This document shows, in pieces, positions 20,589 to 31,023 of a stretch of 64,000 bases of DNA. Source of the stretch: an uncultured Gammaproteobacteria bacterium (GTDB lineage Bacteria > Pseudomonadota > Gammaproteobacteria > JACCXJ01). The stretch lies in NCBI GenBank assembly GCA_963764725.1, contig CAVXTM010000018.1, positions 64,001 to 128,000 on the forward strand, in the 5' to 3' direction. Both the position numbers and the translations under genes were made by a program. Within the stretch, counting starts at the first letter, position 1. Each line of letters opens with the position of its first letter. The notes under the pieces were generated by a model that saw only the letters and a program-made list of their open reading frames with translations, searched no databases and had not been told where the DNA came from.

Positions 20589-21266
20589 GTGGCCATCCCC
20601 GCGGCGGGGAAAGGCGCGCGGATCGGCACCGATCTGCCGAAGCAGTATCTTCCCCTTCTCGGCAAACCGATCATCGCGCATACGTTGGAGCGATTTCTCG
20701 AGCTACCGGCCATCGATGGAATCGTGGTTGCTATCGCGGCCGACGACCGTTATTGGGATTCGATAACTATCAGCAATCGAGGCAAAGTCTCTACCGTCGC
20801 GGGCGGCGCCGAACGCTGTCATTCGGTACTGGCGGCCCTGGAAAACCTGTTACGGCGAGCCAGTCCCGGAGACTGGGTATTGGTACACGACGCCGCGCGT
20901 CCCTGTGTTCGGGCTAAAGACATCGGCCGTCTCATAGAGCGCTGCTCGCGGCATGAGACGGGCGGGCTTTTGGCCTTGCCGGTACGCGACACCATGAAGC
21001 GCGCGGATGACGCTCAGGAGGTCGTTGAGACCGTATCGCGCGCGCGCCTTTGGCATGCCCTGACCCCGCAGATGTTTCGTCTCGGCGCGCTCTACCAGGC
21101 GCTCACCGAAGCCCTGCGTGAGGGACGGATCGTCACCGACGAGGCCGAGGCCATGGAGCTCATGGGCCATACGCCCTGTCTGGTGGAAGGCCATCCCGAT
21201 AACATCAAGATCACCCGCTCCGAAGATGTCGCGTTGGCCGAGTCTTTCCTGAGAGCTTGTGAATAA
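20589..21266 (+). CDS. ispD: MEP cytidylyltransferase (start uncertain)
   Basis: [30 protein letters not shown]. Confidence 0.95.
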
Positions 21267-21462
21267 ATCTACTGCGCAGCCCGCCCGCATCGTTGCGCGG
21301 TGCTCGGAATCCTCATGTATTTCCATATACACTGCGGTTGCTCGCCCCATCCTTGGGACTCGCCCCTTCGGGGCTTGCGCTCCGTTTCGCTCCCGGCGAA
21401 ACGGTCCTGCGCGCCGTGCGCCTCGCGGGCGGGCGTGCTCGCTACGATTTCTTCACAAGCTC
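21253..21462. mobile_element. MITE with GAG..CTC TIRs and 3-bp TGA target duplication
   Basis: GAGCTTGTGAATAAATC / GATTTCTTCACAAGCTC; TGA at 21250-21252 and 21463-21465; relative at 55516-55659. Confidence 0.82.
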
Positions 21463-21487
21463 TGAGCAGCTTTCGGCAAGAAGCGCT

Positions 21488-21958
21488 ATGCGAATAGGTC
21501 ACGGCTACGACGCGCATCGTCTCGTCAGCGGGCGCGCGCTTGTCCTAGGCGGGGTGAGCATTCCGCACGACCGCGGCCTGCTCGCCCACTCCGACGGCGA
21601 CGCGCTGATTCACGCTATTTGCGACGCGCTGTTGGGAGCGGCGGCGCTCGGCGATATCGGTAAGTTTTTCCCGGACACCCAAGCGGAATGGAAAGGGGTG
21701 GACAGCCGGGTGCTGCTGCGCGAGGTGGTGGCGATGCTCGCGCGGAAAGGATTCCGCATCGCCAACGTCGATGCCACGATCGTGGCGCAACGCCCGAAGC
21801 TCGCACCTTACTTTCCGGCCATGCGGGAACACCTTGCCGCCGATCTCAAGATCGCGATCGAAAGGGTCAACGTCAAGGGAACGACGACCGAGGGCATGGG
21901 CTTCGCCGGCCGCGAGGAAGGCATCGCCGCCCATGCCGTTGCATTGCTCGAAGAATAG
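21488..21958 (+). CDS. ispF: MECDP synthase
   Basis: [29 protein letters not shown]. Confidence 0.97.
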
Positions 21959-22288
21959 AGAATACGATCTATACTCTTTCGAGTCGCACGCCCCGCCTGG
22001 TACCCAGACATACCCAGACTCGCGCGTGTTTTTTTTAACGTGTGAAAAACCGAGGATCGTTTTCGAGCCGGTAATCCGACAGCGGATATTCCTTCGCTCG
22101 GGTTTTCCGAACTTCGCCATTTCGCAAAGTTTCCCGTCAGACCGTAAAACAACCCGAATTTCGTCCACTCGCAATCGGTGAGCGGCCGTATGTGGTTGCA
22201 CGGCGTATAGAGAGGGCCGGGCAAAGCACCGGAGCCACATAGCCCGCCAAATTCTCTAAACGGGCTATCCACTTAACGCAAGTCACCG

Positions 22289-23254
22289 CTATATGTTGGG
22301 GTCCGGGCTGTTGACGATTTGGCGGTAAGACACTGGCGGCGTCGCCACGGCCTGTTGCATCAGGCGGTAGAAGAGAAGCCCGCGGGAGCGAGAGGTGCGC
22401 CGGTTGAAGCGAAACGTGTATTCGTCGAGGTAGTAGTCGAGGTACCTGCCACTTACCGCGCCTTGGTGAGTTCCGAGCAGCCAGCGTTTGAGCAGAGAGG
22501 CGATGCGGTGGACACCGGGCATCAGGACATGGGCCGGGTCTCCGCTGTCGGAGAGATTCGTCTTGATGCGCGTATATCCAGACTTCGTCATGTCGTTGTA
22601 CCCGCCCCAGGCGTCGGTGAGAACTTCCGAACCGGGCTCAATGCTCTCGCGCACGAAAGGGACGAGATTGGCGCCGGAGGCGTCGGCCACACGTCTCATG
22701 CGCACGCGTCCAAATCCCTTCGGTTCGTGTAGTTCGACGGCGATGACCACAATCTCCTTTCGTTCTGCTCCACGGCCACGCTTACCGCCTTTTTCGCTGC
22801 CTCCTACGAGCGTCTCGTCCACTTCAACGCGACCATGAAGCCGCTCGCGCCCAGCTCGCACCATCGCGCGTCGCAGCTTATGCAACCAGGTCCATGCCGT
22901 TTGATAGCTTCCCAACCCCAGAACCCGCTTCAGGCCGAGAGCGTTGGCTCCATGCTTCTGACTCGTCACAAACCATATCGCCGCCAACCATGTCTTCAAC
23001 GGGATACGCGTTCGCTCGAACATCGTACCTGCCGTGACCGAGATCTCTGCACCGCAATCCCGACAATGCAGGTAACCTCGTCCCGTGATCCAGGGCGCAC
23101 CGCTGGACCCACAGCGTGGACAGTGGTAACCCGCTGGCCAGCGAAGGCCCGCAAGATACTCGCGACAGCCCGCATCGTCCTCGAAAAAATCATTGAACTC
23201 GCCGAATGTCCGAGGGTAGTCGGACCCGCCGACTGGCCCTTCCCCTGTCCCCAT
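22289..23254 (-). CDS. IS1595-family transposase
   Basis: LRWP..CPRC..CRDC zinc ribbon, VEVDET, TDAW, YLDEYTFRFNRR. Confidence 0.93.
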   Translation of the reverse strand: MGTGEGPVGGSDYPRTFGEFNDFFEDDAGCREYLAGLRWPAGYHCPRCGSSGAPWITGRGYLHCRDCGAEISVTAGTMFERTRIPLKTWLAAIWFVTSQKHGANALGLKRVLGLGSYQTAWTWLHKLRRAMVRAGRERLHGRVEVDETLVGGSEKGGKRGRGAERKEIVVIAVELHEPKGFGRVRMRRVADASGANLVPFVRESIEPGSEVLTDAWGGYNDMTKSGYTRIKTNLSDSGDPAHVLMPGVHRIASLLKRWLLGTHQGAVSGRYLDYYLDEYTFRFNRRTSRSRGLLFYRLMQQAVATPPVSYRQIVNSPDPNI

Positions 23255-23269
23255 GGGTAGCAAACACTA

Positions 23270-24523
23270 GTATAACGATTCTATAAAACATTTACTTTTA
23301 TGAGTAGCGGTGTCATCCTGGCTTCCCAGGCTTATCCATGGTCTGGGAGGGTGATGATGGCGGGAAAGACAAGGCGGGCGGCGCTGGAGGTTTCGGCAGA
23401 TGAACGCGAGAGGTTGGAGCGTTTGCGGGATTCGCGCAAGGCGCCGAAGCGGGAAGTCGAACGCGCGGCGATCCTGCTGCGCTACGCCGTGGGTGAGGGT
23501 CCGGCGGCGATCCAACAGGCGTTGGGGGTGAGCCGGCCGACTATTTACAAATGCATCGACAAGGCGCTGGCGGCCGGGGTGGACGCTGGACTGAAAGATC
23601 ACTACCACCGCCCCAAGGAGCCGCTGATTACACAGCAGGCGAAGGCGTGGGTGTTGAGATAGCGTGCACGAAGCCCACCGATCACGGCTTGGCGGCGGAG
23701 TTGTGGACGCTCTCCGCGCTCGCCCGCTATACCCGCGAGCACGCCGCTGTCGCGGGGCATGGGAGCCTGGCGCAGGCGGGCAAGGCGACGATCTGGCGCA
23801 TCCTGCACGCTGCTGAGATCAAACCCCATAAGGTGGAGTACTACCTGGAGCGCCGCGATGCGCAGTTTGAAGAGAAAATGTGCGAGGTGTTGATGGTCTA
23901 CCAGGAAGTCGCCCTTGCCAATGCCGCGCAGGCCTTGGGCGAGGACGCCGGTTCGGTCATTACCGTCAGCGTGGACGAGAAACCGGGCGTTCAGGCGATC
24001 GAGACTACCGCGCCCGATTTGCCGCCGGTGCCAGGGCAGCACGGCACCTGGAGTCGGGACCACGAGTACCAGCGCCATGGAACCCTGTCCATTCTCGCGG
24101 CCGTGGACTTGCACACCGGCGAAGTCATCGCACAAGTTCATCCGCGCCACCGTAGCCGCGAGTTCATCCTGCTGCTCAAGGAACTCGATGAGCACTACCC
24201 GAAGGCGTGCACCATTCGCGTGATCCTGGACAACCATTCAGCGCATATCTCCAAGGAAACCATGGCCTACCTCGCTTCGCGGCCCAACCGGTTCATCTAC
24301 GTCCATACGCCTAAGCACGGCTCTTGGCTGAACCTGATCGAAACCGTGTTCGGAAAAATGGCCCGTACGTTCCTCAAGGCTATACGCGTCAAGTCTCGCG
24401 AGGAACTTAAGAAGCGCATCTTGCAAGGTGTGCATGAGATGAATCTCGCCCCAGTCGTTGTGCGCTGGACGAAGTTCGATCTGGGGCTGGCATAACAGTA
24501 AGCTAATTGATGAATCGTTATAC
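23270..24523 (+). mobile_element. IS630-family element
   Basis: CTAGTATAACGATTC inverted at 23267-23281 / 24512-24526; TA duplication in a CTAG target. Confidence 0.9.
23354..24495 (+). pseudogene. IS630 transposase in two frames (shift near 23650)
   Basis: HTH half then DDE half (VDEKPG, LDNHSAH, TPKHGSWLNLIE); one base short at TGGGTGTTGAG. Confidence 0.85.
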
Positions 24524-24676
24524 TAGATGTTGTGGTGACTTGCGTCAAGTGGATAGCCCGTTTCTCTAAAACACGGCTTGATGTTACGAAGGGCTTAGTG
24601 AAGTTCTCGCGAAGCAACGCGATTCGGTCATATATCATGGCTTAAAGTCGTGTTAATCGACTCGCAGTCACTACTA

Positions 24677-24705
24677 TTGACAACAGCGTTGAGGGCGACT
24701 ACATT
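24677..24705 (+). promoter_or_regulatory. sigma70 promoter of the retron-like operon
   Basis: TTGACA(24677-24682)-17 nt-TACATT(24700-24705). Confidence 0.8.
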
Positions 24706-24714
24706 ACGCTCGGG

Positions 24715-24748
24715 CGCTGGTTATCCGGCGTACTCAGCTCTTTGACAA
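24715..24748 (+). promoter_or_regulatory. boxB-like hairpin + boxA-like antitermination motif
   Basis: CGCTGG-TTAT-CCGGCG then GCTCTTTGACAA (rrn boxA is GCTCTTTAACA). Confidence 0.5.
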
Positions 24749-24762
24749 GACGGAGCCTCAGC

Positions 24763-25051
24763 GCAAGACCTTAAGCGGTACGGATTTGTTCGTGCCGAAG
24801 TTGGGGGCTAAGCCCCCCTGAATGGCCCGCGATATCCTCGTGGGCCGCGTGCTCGAAGCACGCATGCTCCTCTCATCTCGATCTGCTCGGCATGGCAGCA
24901 CGGTAATTCGTTTGACGCCTTGAGATCAGATATGTAGGGGGCAAGAGCGCGCACATGCGCTCGCGAAATCTGAGTCACTCGGTCCACTCGGGCCTCTCTC
25001 GGGGTCTTGCCACACGGGCAAGGGGCAATTTGGCCCCTGTTCAGAGAGGTT
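24763..25051 (+). ncRNA. Putative retron msr-msd-like structured ncRNA
   Basis: GCAAGACCTT(24763-24772)/GGGGTCTTGC(25001-25010) inverted repeat enclosing hairpins at 24776-24797, 24803-24817, 24824-24846, 24847-24863, ~24865-24942 and 24945-24962. Confidence 0.72.
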
Positions 25052-25056
25052 TTGTC

Positions 25057-25284
25057 ATGAAAAGCATTGCGCTGAAGGAAGCACTGCGGCTGATCACCAA
25101 AGTGCAGACTAACCCGAGAGTAGGACCTGGCCAAGGAGATCAGTTGCAAAAGGCGAAACGAGAACTGGAGTCAATCGCACGATCCGGCAAGCTGGATAGG
25201 CAAAAAGTCTTTCTAGCTATCGAGATCGTTGCGACAGTTCTTCTAGAACTCGTTGAGGACGATGCAACCCGAAGGTCGGAGTGA
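25057..25284 (+). CDS. 75-aa helical small protein, putative retron effector
   Basis: AGAGAGG RBS, ATG 25057, GTGA coupling to the HTH gene; hydrophobic C-terminal helix VFLAIEIVATVLLELV. Confidence 0.65.
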   Translation: MKSIALKEALRLITKVQTNPRVGPGQGDQLQKAKRELESIARSGKLDRQKVFLAIEIVATVLLELVEDDATRRSE

Positions 25285-25646
25285 TTCAGAATCTAATGCA
25301 ACAAGACTACGCCAAAGCGTTCCGTATCATCCGCGCGGCCTTCGGACTCCGACAGTCCGAACTGGCCGAGCGGATGCCCATTACCGCGAGCCAGCTCTCG
25401 CTCATAGAAGCCGGGAAGCGCCAGCCGAGTCTGCGTGTAGTGAATGGTTTGGCAAACGCGGTCGGTGTGCCGGCCGCACTGATTTCCCTGCTCGCATCTA
25501 CTGCGAACGACGTTGAATCGAAACCGGACGAGGACATCTCCGACCTCGCTCGTGCGCTCCTGCGGCTCCTCGTGTCAGCGAGGGAAGAGCCTCAGCGCTC
25601 GTTCAAATTTCAGGGAGTAGGAGGTGCAACCGATCCTATCTGTTAG
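25281..25646 (+). CDS. XRE-family HTH protein
   Basis: IRAAFGLRQSELAE..SQLSLIEAGKRQPS..LANAVGV. Confidence 0.88.
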   Translation: MIQNLMQQDYAKAFRIIRAAFGLRQSELAERMPITASQLSLIEAGKRQPSLRVVNGLANAVGVPAALISLLASTANDVESKPDEDISDLARALLRLLVSAREEPQRSFKFQGVGGATDPIC

Positions 25647-26550
25647 GGATCTGGCGTCGCGACTGGGCACGCCTGCTGCTCGGCTTCGTGAAATCGCCGA
25701 CGATATTAAATCGCATTACAAGGTCTGGCCGCTGTTGGATAAAAAGAAGCATAAAGTTAGACACCTGAGGGTTCCCAGCAATGAGCTGAAGGAGATTCAG
25801 CGTCGGATAAAGAACAACATACTCGCGCCGATCACGCTCCGCGAAGGAGTGCATGGTGGAGTTCGCGGCCGATCGCCACGTTCAAACGCCACCCAGCACT
25901 TGGGTCGGCCCTGTGTGGTAAATCTCGACGTCAGGGACTTCTTCCCCAACGTTCGCCACTGCGTGGTTTACCGGTTGTTTCGGCGCGAACTCGGATTCGG
26001 CCGGGACGTAGCGAGACTCTTGACTCGACTGACCACACTCAACAGTCAGCTCCCCCAAGGCGCCCCAACAAGCACAGCCGTCGCCAACGTGCTTCTCGCG
26101 TTGCCCGTCGATGGCCCAATCTCCGTCGAGGCCGAACGCTTTGACGTCCGCTATACACGCTTTGTCAACGACATCACGTTCTCCGGTTCCAATCCGAGAC
26201 CATTGATCAACGTGGTCGGTCGAATGCTGTCGCGAAGACGATTGCCCATGTATCGGAAGAAGGCAAAGTGGCACTCGAAACCAAAGCTTAAGATCACCTC
26301 GAACTCCAAGCCTCAGGAAGTAACGGGCCTAATCGTAAATTCTAGAACAGGCCCAAGTGTCTCTCCACAACACCGAGACAATATCCGGGCTGCTATTTTC
26401 GGGCTTCGCAATACGACTGATGAAGCAGTGCTGCGCGCAGCGGCGAGTTCCATTCGCGGCAGAATCGCTTACGTTCGACAATTCAACCCCGGTTCGGCCA
26501 ACCGTATGCAGCTATGTCTGGAATCAACGCTCGCTCGGTGCGGTAAATAG
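25624..26550 (+). CDS. Retron-type reverse transcriptase with non-canonical FVND motif
   Basis: LKEIQRRI, NATQH (region X NAxxH), LDVRDFFP, LPQGAPTS, YTRFVNDITFS, VTGL (region Y). Confidence 0.9.
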   Translation: MQPILSVRDLASRLGTPAARLREIADDIKSHYKVWPLLDKKKHKVRHLRVPSNELKEIQRRIKNNILAPITLREGVHGGVRGRSPRSNATQHLGRPCVVNLDVRDFFPNVRHCVVYRLFRRELGFGRDVARLLTRLTTLNSQLPQGAPTSTAVANVLLALPVDGPISVEAERFDVRYTRFVNDITFSGSNPRPLINVVGRMLSRRRLPMYRKKAKWHSKPKLKITSNSKPQEVTGLIVNSRTGPSVSPQHRDNIRAAIFGLRNTTDEAVLRAAASSIRGRIAYVRQFNPGSANRMQLCLESTLARCGK

Positions 26551-26747
26551 GGACAGGCCACGGTTTTCTATTGAACGCGGTTGCGCTCAAACCGGCATCA
26601 GCCATGCGTCTTGGGCTCCTGTAGCGCCCAGTGCATGTGCATGAGAGCGACGGCATCGGCCCCCGGCCAAAGCCTTCAGTTGTGGGCTGTTGCTCGTGCG
26701 GCGGCTGCGGTAGTTCGGCATGTAATAACACTCATCGCAGATTCGTT

Positions 26748-27099
26748 ATGAGCCATCGGATCAACATCATTCTCGACGACGATATTTGGGAGTCTCTGCA
26801 AGCCGTTCCCAAGGGTAAGCGCAGCCCGCTCGTGAATCAGGCGATTGCCGCCTGGCTCGTCCAGAATAACCGCCGCGGCGCGCTGGGGAGGCGATGAATA
26901 CATTACGCAAGCGGGATAGACCGCTCGCCGGTGCGGCGGAGGATTGGGTGCGCGAAGACCGCGATCGGCATCGATGAGGATCGTCGTCCCCGACGCCTCA
27001 GTGTTGCTCAAATGGGGGTTCCTGCCGAACGGGAAACGTATATCGAGCCAGCGTTCGCGCTACGGGATGCGGGCAGTGCAGGCTCACATGGATCCATAG
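26748..27099 (+). pseudogene. Decayed vapBC module: frameshifted antitoxin + PIN N-terminal remnant
   Basis: MSHRINIILDDD.. continuing in a shifted frame to WVREDRDRHR*; ATGA-coupled MRIVVPDASVLLKW at 26974, truncated. Confidence 0.65.
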
Positions 27100-28865: not shown

Positions 28866-31023
28866 ATGGAAGAGGATTTGACCATCGCGGATCTGAGCAT
28901 CGCATCAGACGCCGATTGGCACTTACCCGGGACGAAGCTTCATCGGTATCGCGTCGACAGCGTCCTCGGCCAGGGGGACTATTGGTTAACCTATTTAGCC
29001 AGTGACCTGAACCTGGGCCGCCCGGTTATTATTACCGAATACATGCCGTGCGAGATCGCCATACGCGATACGCGCGGCGTGATTCATCCTGCCGCTGCGG
29101 AGCATGGCGCGGAGTATAAGGCTGGGACTTGAGTGCTTCCTGACTGACGCGCAAAAGCTCGCCGGGATCAGGCATCAAAATATCGCCCTAGCGTTGAATG
29201 CCTTCGAAGCGAACAACAGCGCTTATATCGTCGTCGCGCACGAGCAAGGCAAGAAAGCAGAACACCTCTTTGATGGCTCAACTGTGGCGGAAAAGGAGCT
29301 TCTCGCCTTGGTATTACCGATCCTGGACGGGCTCGAAGCGATCCACGCAAGCGGCTATATTCACCGCTACATTCAGCCGTCAAACATTATTATTCGTCCA
29401 GATGGGAGCCCCGTGTTAACGGGCTTCAACCCGGGCGGCGGCGCTCTCTTCAACCCCGCTAGCACATTGACCAAGCATTTCCCATCGGACTTCGCGCCCA
29501 TCGAGCTTTGCTTTGGCGATGGCGAGCTGCATGGCCCGTGGACCGACATTTTCAGCCTTGGCGCAACGCTCTACCAGGCAGTGGTTGGCGTTGCACCGGT
29601 AGCTGCAATCGAGCGCAGTCGCATGGTCGTCCAAGGCGAAACCGATCCGCTGATGTCCGTACTGCCGGTTGGGCAGGAAAACTATAGCGATGCCTTTCTT
29701 AAAGCCATTGATCATGCCTTACGTTTTTTACCCACGCAGCGGCCGCTGACCGTTGCGGCGTGGCGCAAGGAGCTATCCGGGAACGACTCGCTCGACATCG
29801 ACTTTGTGATCCGGCCTAAATCAGAGCACGTGGTCAAGCTGCGTGATGATGTCGAGACACTACGAGCCCAGGAAGATCACAAGCGGCGCGTGGCCGAAGA
29901 GGAGCGGACCGTCAGGAAGCTTCTCGACCTCGCGCGCACCGCCATAAGCGAACACGATCTGCAGACGGCTCAGACCAGGCTCGACGAGGCCGCGGGAATC
30001 GCACCGACATCGGAAGCCGTAGCCCACCTTCGCGAGGAGCTCAAGGCGCGCGAGACCGCGGTCGTAGAGCAACGCCTCGTGAAGGAGACGCGGCACCTAC
30101 AGGCCGAAGAGACCGCGAACGAGTTAGTTACGCTTGGCCGCGATCCGACGGGCAACCAAGCACGGCCCGCCGTTGCAGGGAGGAGGGACGGGAAAATTGA
30201 GAGCATCCCGGCGTTAAATCGGTCATTACAACCAGCGGATGTTCCGGTGAACATCCCGATAATGAACGACTGGGTACGGAGCACGGTCGATCCCTCCAAT
30301 GAAACGGCGGGCGGCAGTCCCCCCGAACGGGACCTGCGACGACGGCACCGCGGCAAGTGGCTCGGATACTCTGCCGCGACCGCAGGGATAGTGGGTCTGG
30401 GACTCTCCTTGGCGTGGATGCGTCCGGGTTCGTTTGCTATCCTCTACGATGCGGCAGACGAATGGCTTTCCGGAAACCTCTTTCGTGACGAGCCAACCGA
30501 AACCCTGCCCAAGCCGGCGGCCCAAGTACCCGTACCGGGACGTGAGGATCCAGCCGGAGCGCCGCCCGTTTTCCAACCGCGCTTGGATCAGGAGCAATGG
30601 GACGCGGCTCGGACCAGGCTCGACGAGGCCGCCGTGAACGCACCGGAATCGGAAACCGTAGCCGGCCTTCGCGACGAGCTCAAGGCGCGCGAGACCAGGC
30701 AAGTAGCGATCCGAGAGGTCACCCCCTCGCGTGTTCGTGTGAGGCCGGGCGAGACCGTACGGTTTTATACCGAATATTCTCTAAGCCTTCCGGCGAGCGA
30801 CAAGGAAGCTCATGTGAAAGCCACCTGGGTGCTGCTTCGAGGCGGCCGGAAAATCGGGCGAGAAGGTATCGACAATCGATACGCAAGGGCAGGCCTCAAT
30901 ACCGCGGTAACCGAGCTGACATTACCACCCCGGACCGCATCCGGGGAATACACCGTCGAGCATCGGGTGCAGGTGGGTGATAGCTTCGATGTGGCGCACT
31001 CGCGTTTTGTCCTAGCGAGGTAG
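28866..31023 (+). pseudogene. Ser/Thr kinase-like (pseudokinase) - TM - extracytoplasmic protein, +1 frameshift at ~29121
   Basis: VLGQG..TYLA, TEYMP, HRYIQPSNI, APIE, GPWTDIFSLGATLY; ORFs 28866 and 29104 join by removing one G. Confidence 0.72.

Follow-up and report, generated by a model that had tools for sequence, protein, structure and literature searches.

A type VI retron locus in an uncultured gammaproteobacterium: conserved helices of a probable msr-msd domain and their pairing with the small-protein reading frame

Background

What is the structured RNA predicted upstream of a small reading frame at positions 24763-25010 of a gammaproteobacterial contig, and does it end where its terminal repeats end? 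The window considered here is a stretch of 64,000 nt (contig CAVXTM010000018.1 of assembly GCA_963764725.1, positions 64,001 to 128,000). The initial annotation, made from the letters alone, had proposed at 24763-25010 a retron msr-msd element bounded by the repeats a1 and a2, with a branching G just inside a1. We believe, with good though incomplete confidence, that what was flagged is a type VI retron's msr-msd domain, making up the 5' half of a hybrid RNA of ~580 nt. The structure is a genuine, conserved retron RNA of an already known kind, located upstream of a reverse transcriptase (RT) of the RT_VI type and closed by a covarying a1/a2 duplex. The proposed boundary did not hold, however: the element is only the 5' domain of a longer RNA, which runs past 25010 and continues through the gene of a small protein (SP) to about 25290.

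Judging by the texts of two preprints of 2025-2026 (bioRxiv 10.1101/2025.10.22.683967; 10.64898/2026.04.27.721009), type VI was until then a retron class with no recognised noncoding RNA (ncRNA). Its genes are described in the order SP, helix-turn-helix (HTH) protein, RT (Mestre et al. 2020, PMC7736814; bioRxiv 10.64898/2026.04.27.721009). In the account of Mestre et al. 2020 (PMC7736814), the HTH protein is of the Cro/C1 type, has about 91-110 aa and is encoded upstream of the RT gene or overlapping it; the accessory protein encoded upstream of the HTH protein is helical and has 75-79 aa (clusters 2075, 2760, 3272 and 3897). The preprint texts cover two type VI systems, and their control logics appear opposite: the toxicity of SP is controlled by msDNA (multicopy single-stranded DNA) in Retron-Vpa2 (bioRxiv 10.1101/2025.10.22.683967) and by the HTH protein in Retron-Sen3 (bioRxiv 10.64898/2026.04.27.721009).

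Results

The fold was compared with 200 dinucleotide shuffles of the 248 nt at 24763-25010. The minimum free energy (MFE) is -120.7 kcal/mol against -91.7 +/- 4.64 kcal/mol for the shuffles (z -6.25), and none of the 200 folds as well. The minus strand reaches -104.5 kcal/mol (z -4.87), which is 16 kcal/mol worse, and G-U pairs are frequent in the conserved stems; both facts agree with the earlier assignment of the RNA to the plus strand. The longer stretch 24712-25300 also folds beyond its shuffles (z -6.83). In the 248-nt fold the closing stem is followed by five unpaired bases, the last of them G24775; then come four hairpins, the long irregular stem and finally a hairpin of 6 bp. The elements that had been read from the letters are all at their stated positions: the a1/a2 duplex has its 10 pairs (8 Watson-Crick and 2 G-U), of which 8 form in the 248-nt fold and all 10 form if the msd tail is held single-stranded; neither the minimum-energy nor the centroid fold pairs G24775; and the four short stems, the long irregular stem and the stem after it all belong to the minimum-energy fold. 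Coordinates are collected in Table 1.

Table 1. Features of the retron locus and RNA-library contigs, in positions of the window
Feature	Positions	Strand	Remarks
Sigma-70-like promoter (TTGACA, 17 nt, TACATT)	24677..24705	+	Found by scan, 10/12 matches; predicted start about 24712
P0, 7-bp hairpin at predicted RNA 5' end	24714..24731	+	96.4% paired; 3/7 pairs changed on both sides; many U-G pairs; in MFE fold
GCTCTTT, 7-nt motif	24737..24743	+	Columns invariant or nearly so (A3, 24 sequences)
P1ext, 5' strand	24749..24759	+	Pairs with 25046-25056, from Shine-Dalgarno to the base before AUG
a1 repeat	24763..24772	+	Partner a2
Candidate branching G	24775	+	Invariant in 24/24 sequences (column G102 of A3); unpaired in fold
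H1-H4, msr-type hairpins	24776-97, 24803-17, 24824-46, 24847-63	+	In MFE fold; helices 3-6 of A3
H5, long irregular stem, candidate msDNA stem-loop template	24865..24943	+	In MFE fold
H6 hairpin	24945..24962	+	75.7% paired (A3); 85.4% on A6, 5/6 pairs changed on both sides
IR1	24969..24980	+	Pairs with IR2 across the whole SP frame; 12 bp in full-length MFE fold
J, 5' strand	24981..24992	+	Pairs with SP codons 19-24 (25113-25127)
a2 repeat	25001..25010	+	Partner a1
H8 hairpin, between a2 and ribosome binding site	25022..25037	+	87.4% paired; 4/5 pairs changed on both sides (A3)
Shine-Dalgarno (25043-25049) and spacer of SP	25043..25056	+	25046-25056 is the 3' strand of P1ext
SP, 75-aa putative toxic effector	25057..25284	+	72 homologues at E <= 0.001
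IR2	25279..25290	+	Overlaps SP stop codon; ends 5 nt before HTH ATG
Cro/C1-type HTH protein, 116 aa from ATG	25296..25646	+	PADLOC HTH_VI 1.6e-17; Pfam HTH_31 3.6e-11
Retron reverse transcriptase, 308 aa	25624..26550	+	PADLOC RT_VI 9.1e-63 (210 bits); Pfam RVT_1 35.2 bits
RNA-library run X2	24779-25286		One 508-nt contig
RNA-library run X12	24781-25068 and 25106-25260		Contigs
RNA-library run X6	24795-25077 and 25077-25278		Contigs
RNA-library run X11	24912-25281		Contig

Conservation was assessed in related loci found through SP. Among 75 candidates, 72 homologues passed E <= 0.001, and 38 of the 72 were aligned (A1); with this alignment 25 metagenome loci were obtained, and with a 12-sequence subset four loci in genome assemblies (titled Gammaproteobacteria, one of them Steroidobacteraceae). 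Alignment A3 extends from the promoter to the AUG in the window and 23 loci (24 sequences); it omits six loci, four with less than 300 nt upstream (L007, L013, L022, L028) and two that duplicate kept rows over the region (L009, L020). Alignment A4 has 20 sequences, L006, L017 and L025 being left out (their contigs end) and L023 as well (SP truncated); A6 is a model-fitted alignment. A cognate test sets the duplex energy of a strand with its own partner against that with non-cognate partners.

On A3, nine helices comprising 64 pairs are 83.8% paired; the shuffles give 77.6%, with 0 of 500 reaching the observed value, and partners slid along the sequence pair at 33-47%. Both sides have changed in 41 of the 64 pairs. 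Every stem of the initial annotation recurs with compensatory changes in 23 related loci. P0, H1 and H3 are each more than 90% paired; the values for H1-H4 are 94.1, 62.3 (poorly aligned), 90.7 and 83.9%, with 8, 6, 6 and 4 pairs changed on both sides. For a1/a2 the column count on A3 is 77%, and 5 of the 10 pairs show a change on either side at once; in the alignment-free cognate test, duplexes have -14.06 kcal/mol vs -9.78 kcal/mol for non-cognate ones (p 1e-8), and a control pairing of a1 with the ribosome-site region is non-significant. We regard a1/a2 as real because cognate pairs outscore non-cognate ones and its columns change on both sides.

G24775, the proposed branching G, is the sole invariant unpaired G between a1 and the first hairpin; its priming role is suggested by analogy with other retrons. 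H5 is 54-141 nt long in the relatives and unalignable in sequence, and its ends pair in 23 of 24 loci; such a variable yet closed stem fits an msd, and the succession of short stems and a long variable one agrees with the proposed division into msr and a 3' half that is msd. For the GCTCTTT motif, between P0 and the basal stem, a covarying partner was not found; it may be a protein-binding site. Two hairpins were set aside: the local one at 24981-24994 in the 248-nt fold (76.5% paired, one pair changed on both sides), to which the J helix described below is preferred, and a weak one overlapping a2 (25007-25021, 67.7% paired on A6).

Two transposase genes lie directly upstream, and one could suppose that the helices are inverted repeats that arose by chance, or relics of the adjacent insertion sequences. 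We give this practically no credence: compensatory changes occur in 23 loci on other contigs, and the covariance model of the 3' domain matches the genome once. The fold (z -6.25), the covariation of the local helices and that of IR1/IR2 rule it out.

The helix IR1/IR2 closes the whole SP frame. In A4 (11 pairs, 20 sequences) it is 95.0% paired, with both sides changed in 8 of 11 pairs; none of 500 shuffles does as well, and pairing drops to 27-46% when the partners are slid. The stop codon lies inside IR2 in 8 of 20 loci and IR2 lies downstream of the stop in the other 12; the conservation of IR2 is therefore not due to coding. As this is the best-supported long-range helix, one may ask whether it, rather than a1/a2, is the priming duplex, with the conserved G24981 or G24982 after IR1 as the branching G. 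Both of these are nearly invariant, and the wording of section 7 in the Vpa2 preprint text (bioRxiv 10.1101/2025.10.22.683967) could be taken in this sense. We consider it improbable: the template beside IR2 would be the end of the small frame, whereas by the same text Vpa2 msDNA maps to the long stem-loop of msr-msd; G24981-82 are paired within the J helix; and a1/a2 with a G just past the 3' end of a1 has the canonical geometry, as described by Mestre et al. 2020 (PMC7736814).

The J helix joins the strand after IR1 to the SP frame and is found at the same aligned place in all 20 loci. Cognate duplexes have -19.01 vs -13.16 for non-cognate (p 3e-8), and three control windows of the frame give p 0.29-0.85. 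In its 6-bp half 88.3% of cells pair and every one of the 6 pairs has changed on both sides; the 5-bp half, which MAFFT misaligns, is 49% paired. The J region has fixed synonymous codons: AGA encodes Arg21 in 87%, and GGA encodes Gly23 in 100%, of the sequences that have the residue. Since the 24 nt between H6 and a2 pair with codons 19-24 and with the stop region, the putative toxin frame appears to be folded back on the presumed template of the RT. As a separate observation, SP codons 11-16 (25087-25104) are also fixed (Arg11 CGG in 89%, Thr14 ACC in 94%, Val16 GTG in 95%), which suggests a further constraint at the RNA level inside the frame.

P1ext extends the basal stem outwards by 11 bp in the MFE fold with the msd tail constrained single-stranded. 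Cognate duplexes have -12.24 vs -7.58 kcal/mol for non-cognate (p 8e-9); in 11 of 23 cases no other partner scores better than the cognate one. The pyrimidine tract at 24993-24999, 5' of a2, was considered as an alternative anti-Shine-Dalgarno strand; with -10.99 vs -8.45 and -12.16 vs -10.18 in the energy comparisons and 60% pairing on A6, it is weaker than P1ext. That the msDNA's 5' end is a decoy for the strand 5' of a1 was rejected as well (cognate -8.48 vs -8.12, p 0.33). Within the limits of sequence comparison, covariation shows the 5' hairpin, the basal stem with a1/a2 as its inner and P1ext as its outer part, the inner hairpins and the pairings with the reading frame.

P1ext with a1/a2 crosses IR1/IR2 with J; the two sets have no nucleotide in common and for this reason could coexist. 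A switch between them, each set being an alternative conformer as proposed for Sen3, is a serious possibility, although we would put it at somewhat less than an even chance. Such an alternative conformation is described in the Sen3 text (bioRxiv 10.64898/2026.04.27.721009), and the nested fold of the full RNA takes IR1/IR2 without a1/a2 (-252.4), with a1/a2 and P1ext appearing only if the msd tail is blocked (-235.1). The choice is unforced, however, since no nucleotide is shared, and the folding programs used are nested only and cannot model pseudoknots.

A different arrangement would be a reciprocal lock within one pseudoknot, in which two covarying helices tie the first 24 nucleotides of the presumed template (24969-24992) to the toxin frame and the segment from Shine-Dalgarno to AUG is held by the strand 5' of a1. 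We advance it tentatively and judge it rather less probable than the switch. If it were true, reverse transcription would have to unzip the toxin mRNA and translation would have to unzip the stem that positions the primer G; this would explain in physical terms why msDNA synthesis and toxin translation are linked in Vpa2.

The gene content agrees with the retron assignment. The best PADLOC matches of the HTH and RT genes are HTH_VI and RT_VI, and it is by these best profiles that the locus is assigned to type VI. The next profile for the RT is RT_III-A (6.4e-53), all 25 of the 25 best PADLOC matches are retron RT profiles, Pfam RVT_1 is over its cut-off, and the NAxxH and VTG motifs are both present in the RT alignment. 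The HTH frame is open from GTG 25281, and the HTH gene overlaps the RT start by 23 nt. The HTH gene follows SP in 26 of 29 related loci (the contigs of the remaining 3 stop at most 49 nt past SP), and the RT gene follows in 21 of 29 (the remaining 8 contigs stop before it); SP is upstream of HTH and RT in every locus long enough to tell. The -35 hexamer of the predicted promoter is aligned in 23 of the 24 sequences of A3.

No family match was found for SP in Pfam, PADLOC or NCBIfam, and a look-up in the ESM Atlas was uninformative (best score 0.89). The structure model has three helices (4-17, 24-43, 48-74; mean predicted local distance difference test, pLDDT, 89.1), and in its size, position and three-helix model SP agrees with the published description of the small protein. 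Predicted complexes of HTH with SP score 0.57 vs 0.00 for the best of 3 controls, which is weak support: 58 of 80 solved complexes attain the mark, as do 2 of 110 mismatches, and passing scores of 0.60 or less come from only 7 of the 80 solved complexes and from both passing mismatches. The runs agree in at least 87% of contacts, with a partner pLDDT of at least 75.

Contigs 100% identical to the window were found in 4 metatranscriptome runs of 1 study, and they span 24779-25286. In run X2 the stretch from the first msr hairpin through the SP stop is a single piece. These contigs define neither the ends, nor the strand, nor the level of the RNA; their cover is zero on 24300-24778 and 25287-26800, which counts as no evidence of absence, and their right-hand limits (25260-25286) are not RNA ends. 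Contigs of three runs begin 4-20 nt past G24775 (24779-24795) and none covers a1 or P0; we take this for a coincidence and not for RNA ends.

The element is sporadic in occurrence. An RT protein search in 100 relatives of the genome gave only two distant retron RTs (31% identity); the model of the RNA 3' domain matched once in its own genome and in none of 150 others of the class; a scan of a genome collection with the RT alone and a scan of viral contigs with the SP alignment gave no match. Two relatives deserve separate mention. At L023:487-908 SP is cut to 58 aa, the HTH match begins at residue 19 and the upstream RNA is kept; this has the look of a decayed copy in which a deletion runs through the SP-HTH junction. 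At L017:1336-1761 the RNA 3' domain is kept and the 5' domain (a1 to the second hairpin) is divergent, which may be a module swap.

As to the surroundings (20589-24495), two transposase genes, an IS1595-type one on the minus and a DDE_3 one on the plus strand, lie right before the retron and are preceded by the housekeeping genes ispD and ispF; the retron region looks like an inserted island. A gene for a 639-aa Ser/Thr protein kinase at 29104-31023, with a kinase domain matching PADLOC PD-T4-6 profiles (6.4e-19), is possibly another nearby defence gene. For two small frames after the RT gene (26748-27099; 49 and 41 aa) a Pfam match was not found; on visual inspection they look like a ribbon-helix-helix antitoxin and the beginning of a PIN-domain toxin.

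Discussion

A number of observations weigh against the explanation preferred here. Rfam holds no family that was found for this RNA (four matches, all far under the gathering scores and none inside 24763-25010), and the NCBIfam retron models stay under their cut-offs (best 156.6 vs 235). By column, a1/a2 is only 77% paired, indels misaligning some rows. Six type VI retrons gave undetectable single-stranded DNA in E. coli (Khan et al. 2025, as told in the text of bioRxiv 10.64898/2026.04.27.721009). A folding test also went against a simple release of translation: with 24969-24999 single-stranded, the predicted accessibility of the ribosome site fell from 0.37 to 0.27 over 20 loci and was unchanged with a control mask (0.37), and we therefore rejected the proposal that copying or removal of the msd tail frees the ribosome site. 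Finally, motif C of the RT is FVND in this genome: codon 182 (26167-26169) is AAC, giving Asn in place of the first catalytic Asp.

Asn at the first Asp of RT motif C should cripple polymerisation. The lineage has an active site of the xxDD type and the window copy does not: the motif is F[VI]DD in 15 of 15 related loci covering it, and among the listed database homologues it is xxDD in 117 of 120 and ND in 0 of 120. The RT of this genome is thus probably impaired, as far as its sequence tells. The FVND reading comes from a single assembly. The change may have arisen recently or be an error of that assembly; the enzyme is possibly a naturally dead retron RT.

This raises the question of whether, in this genome, the structure is only a cis-acting leader that represses and stabilises the SP mRNA, the RT being inactive and no reverse transcription taking place. 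The substitution itself, set against DD in the related loci, would agree with such a role, as would the sequestration of the ribosome site by P1ext and the folding of the reading frame onto the leader. We nevertheless consider it rather unlikely, though by no means negligible. The a1/a2 duplex, the invariant G, the four msr-type hairpins and the variable long stem are conserved where the RTs of the lineage are intact; a plain leader needs none of these retron features, and the Asn could be of recent origin or an error in the assembly. The msr-msd assignment remains our preferred one.

Among known systems the closest are the two of the preprints. Going by its text, Retron-Sen3 / cl2075 (Garcia-Rodriguez et al., bioRxiv 10.64898/2026.04.27.721009) shares with our locus the order SP-HTH-RT, an ncRNA of several stems that lies within about 300 nt of the SP start and ends in inverted repeats, a hairpin conserved on the upstream side of the 5' repeat, an internal stem that is long and variable, a basal stem holding the SP ribosome site, an IR1 in the ncRNA that pairs with an IR2 past the SP stop, a constraint at the RNA level inside the SP frame, a helical SP of 75-79 aa, and hosts among Beta- and Gammaproteobacteria. 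There are differences as well. The IR1-IR2 stem of Sen3 is reported without significant covariation, whereas 8 of 11 pairs covary in the present lineage, and the helix closing the frame is more strongly covarying here than that text reports; the 5' hairpin of Sen3 is immediately upstream of the repeat and ours is 31 nt before a1; Sen3 needs a rearrangement of SL4-SL6, while the two helix sets here share zero nucleotides; and the RT of the window copy reads FVND.

The hybrid RNA of Retron-Vpa2, as presented in the text of Zhang et al. (bioRxiv 10.1101/2025.10.22.683967), is likewise one transcript with msr-msd and the SP frame; its ribosome site and start codon are in stems, its 3' end anneals to an msr-msd arm, and the arms meet at a central node. 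Its size, about 470 nt, is of the same order as the RNA-library contig of at least 508 nt found here. The Vpa2 SP differs in having 55 aa and belonging to the 'Large' clade (as told in bioRxiv 10.64898/2026.04.27.721009), and no conserved pair corresponding to the 7-nt direct repeats of Vpa2, proposed as the contact between msDNA and riboregulator, was found here. In its architecture the locus, a further lineage, matches the Vpa2 hybrid RNA and the Sen3 extended transcript. An invariant candidate primer G is mentioned in neither preprint text, and the words 'branch' and 'branching' are absent from both; the comparison was with these texts, and the published models may already include some of the helices or the lock.

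With classic retrons, as described by Mestre et al. 2020 (PMC7736814), the locus shares the flanking a1/a2, a G directly past the 3' end of a1 that is conserved and unpaired, msr hairpins followed by a long msd stem, and an RT with NAxxH and VTG. It differs from those such as Ec86/Eco1 in that two genes separate the ncRNA from the RT, the msr has four hairpins in an element of about 250 nt, the RNA continues into the effector frame and pairs with it, and motif C is FVDD in this lineage vs YxDD. The impression of an unusually elaborate element is accordingly fair in relation to Ec86 and its like, but not to type VI, for which the size and stem number are ordinary; the text of the Sen3 preprint (bioRxiv 10.64898/2026.04.27.721009) places SL1-SL6 within about 280 nt of the small-protein start.

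We presume the following course of events. Transcription would start near 24712 at the conserved promoter, as predicted. By analogy with canonical retrons, Vpa2 and Sen3, the RT together with the HTH protein would prime DNA synthesis from the 2'-OH of G24775, and copying would run from about 25000 leftwards to about 24865; msDNA synthesis and a 2'-5' branch at this locus are likewise inferred. SP, whose toxicity is suggested by Vpa2 and Sen3 only, would act as a growth-arresting effector, restrained until phage infection by sequestration of the ribosome site, by the HTH protein, or by both.

Conclusions

Together with its 29 relatives, the locus represents a third lineage of type VI retrons, an environmental one, which is divergent enough to define the helices by compensatory change. 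It offers ready targets for mutation: the invariant candidate primer G, the closure of the toxin frame onto the RT template, and the sequestration of the ribosome site under the priming stem. The FVND variant, together with the RNA-library cover, suggests that a possibly dead RT does not keep the hybrid RNA from being made. For annotation, searches for ncRNA upstream of type VI RTs should reach across the small reading frame.

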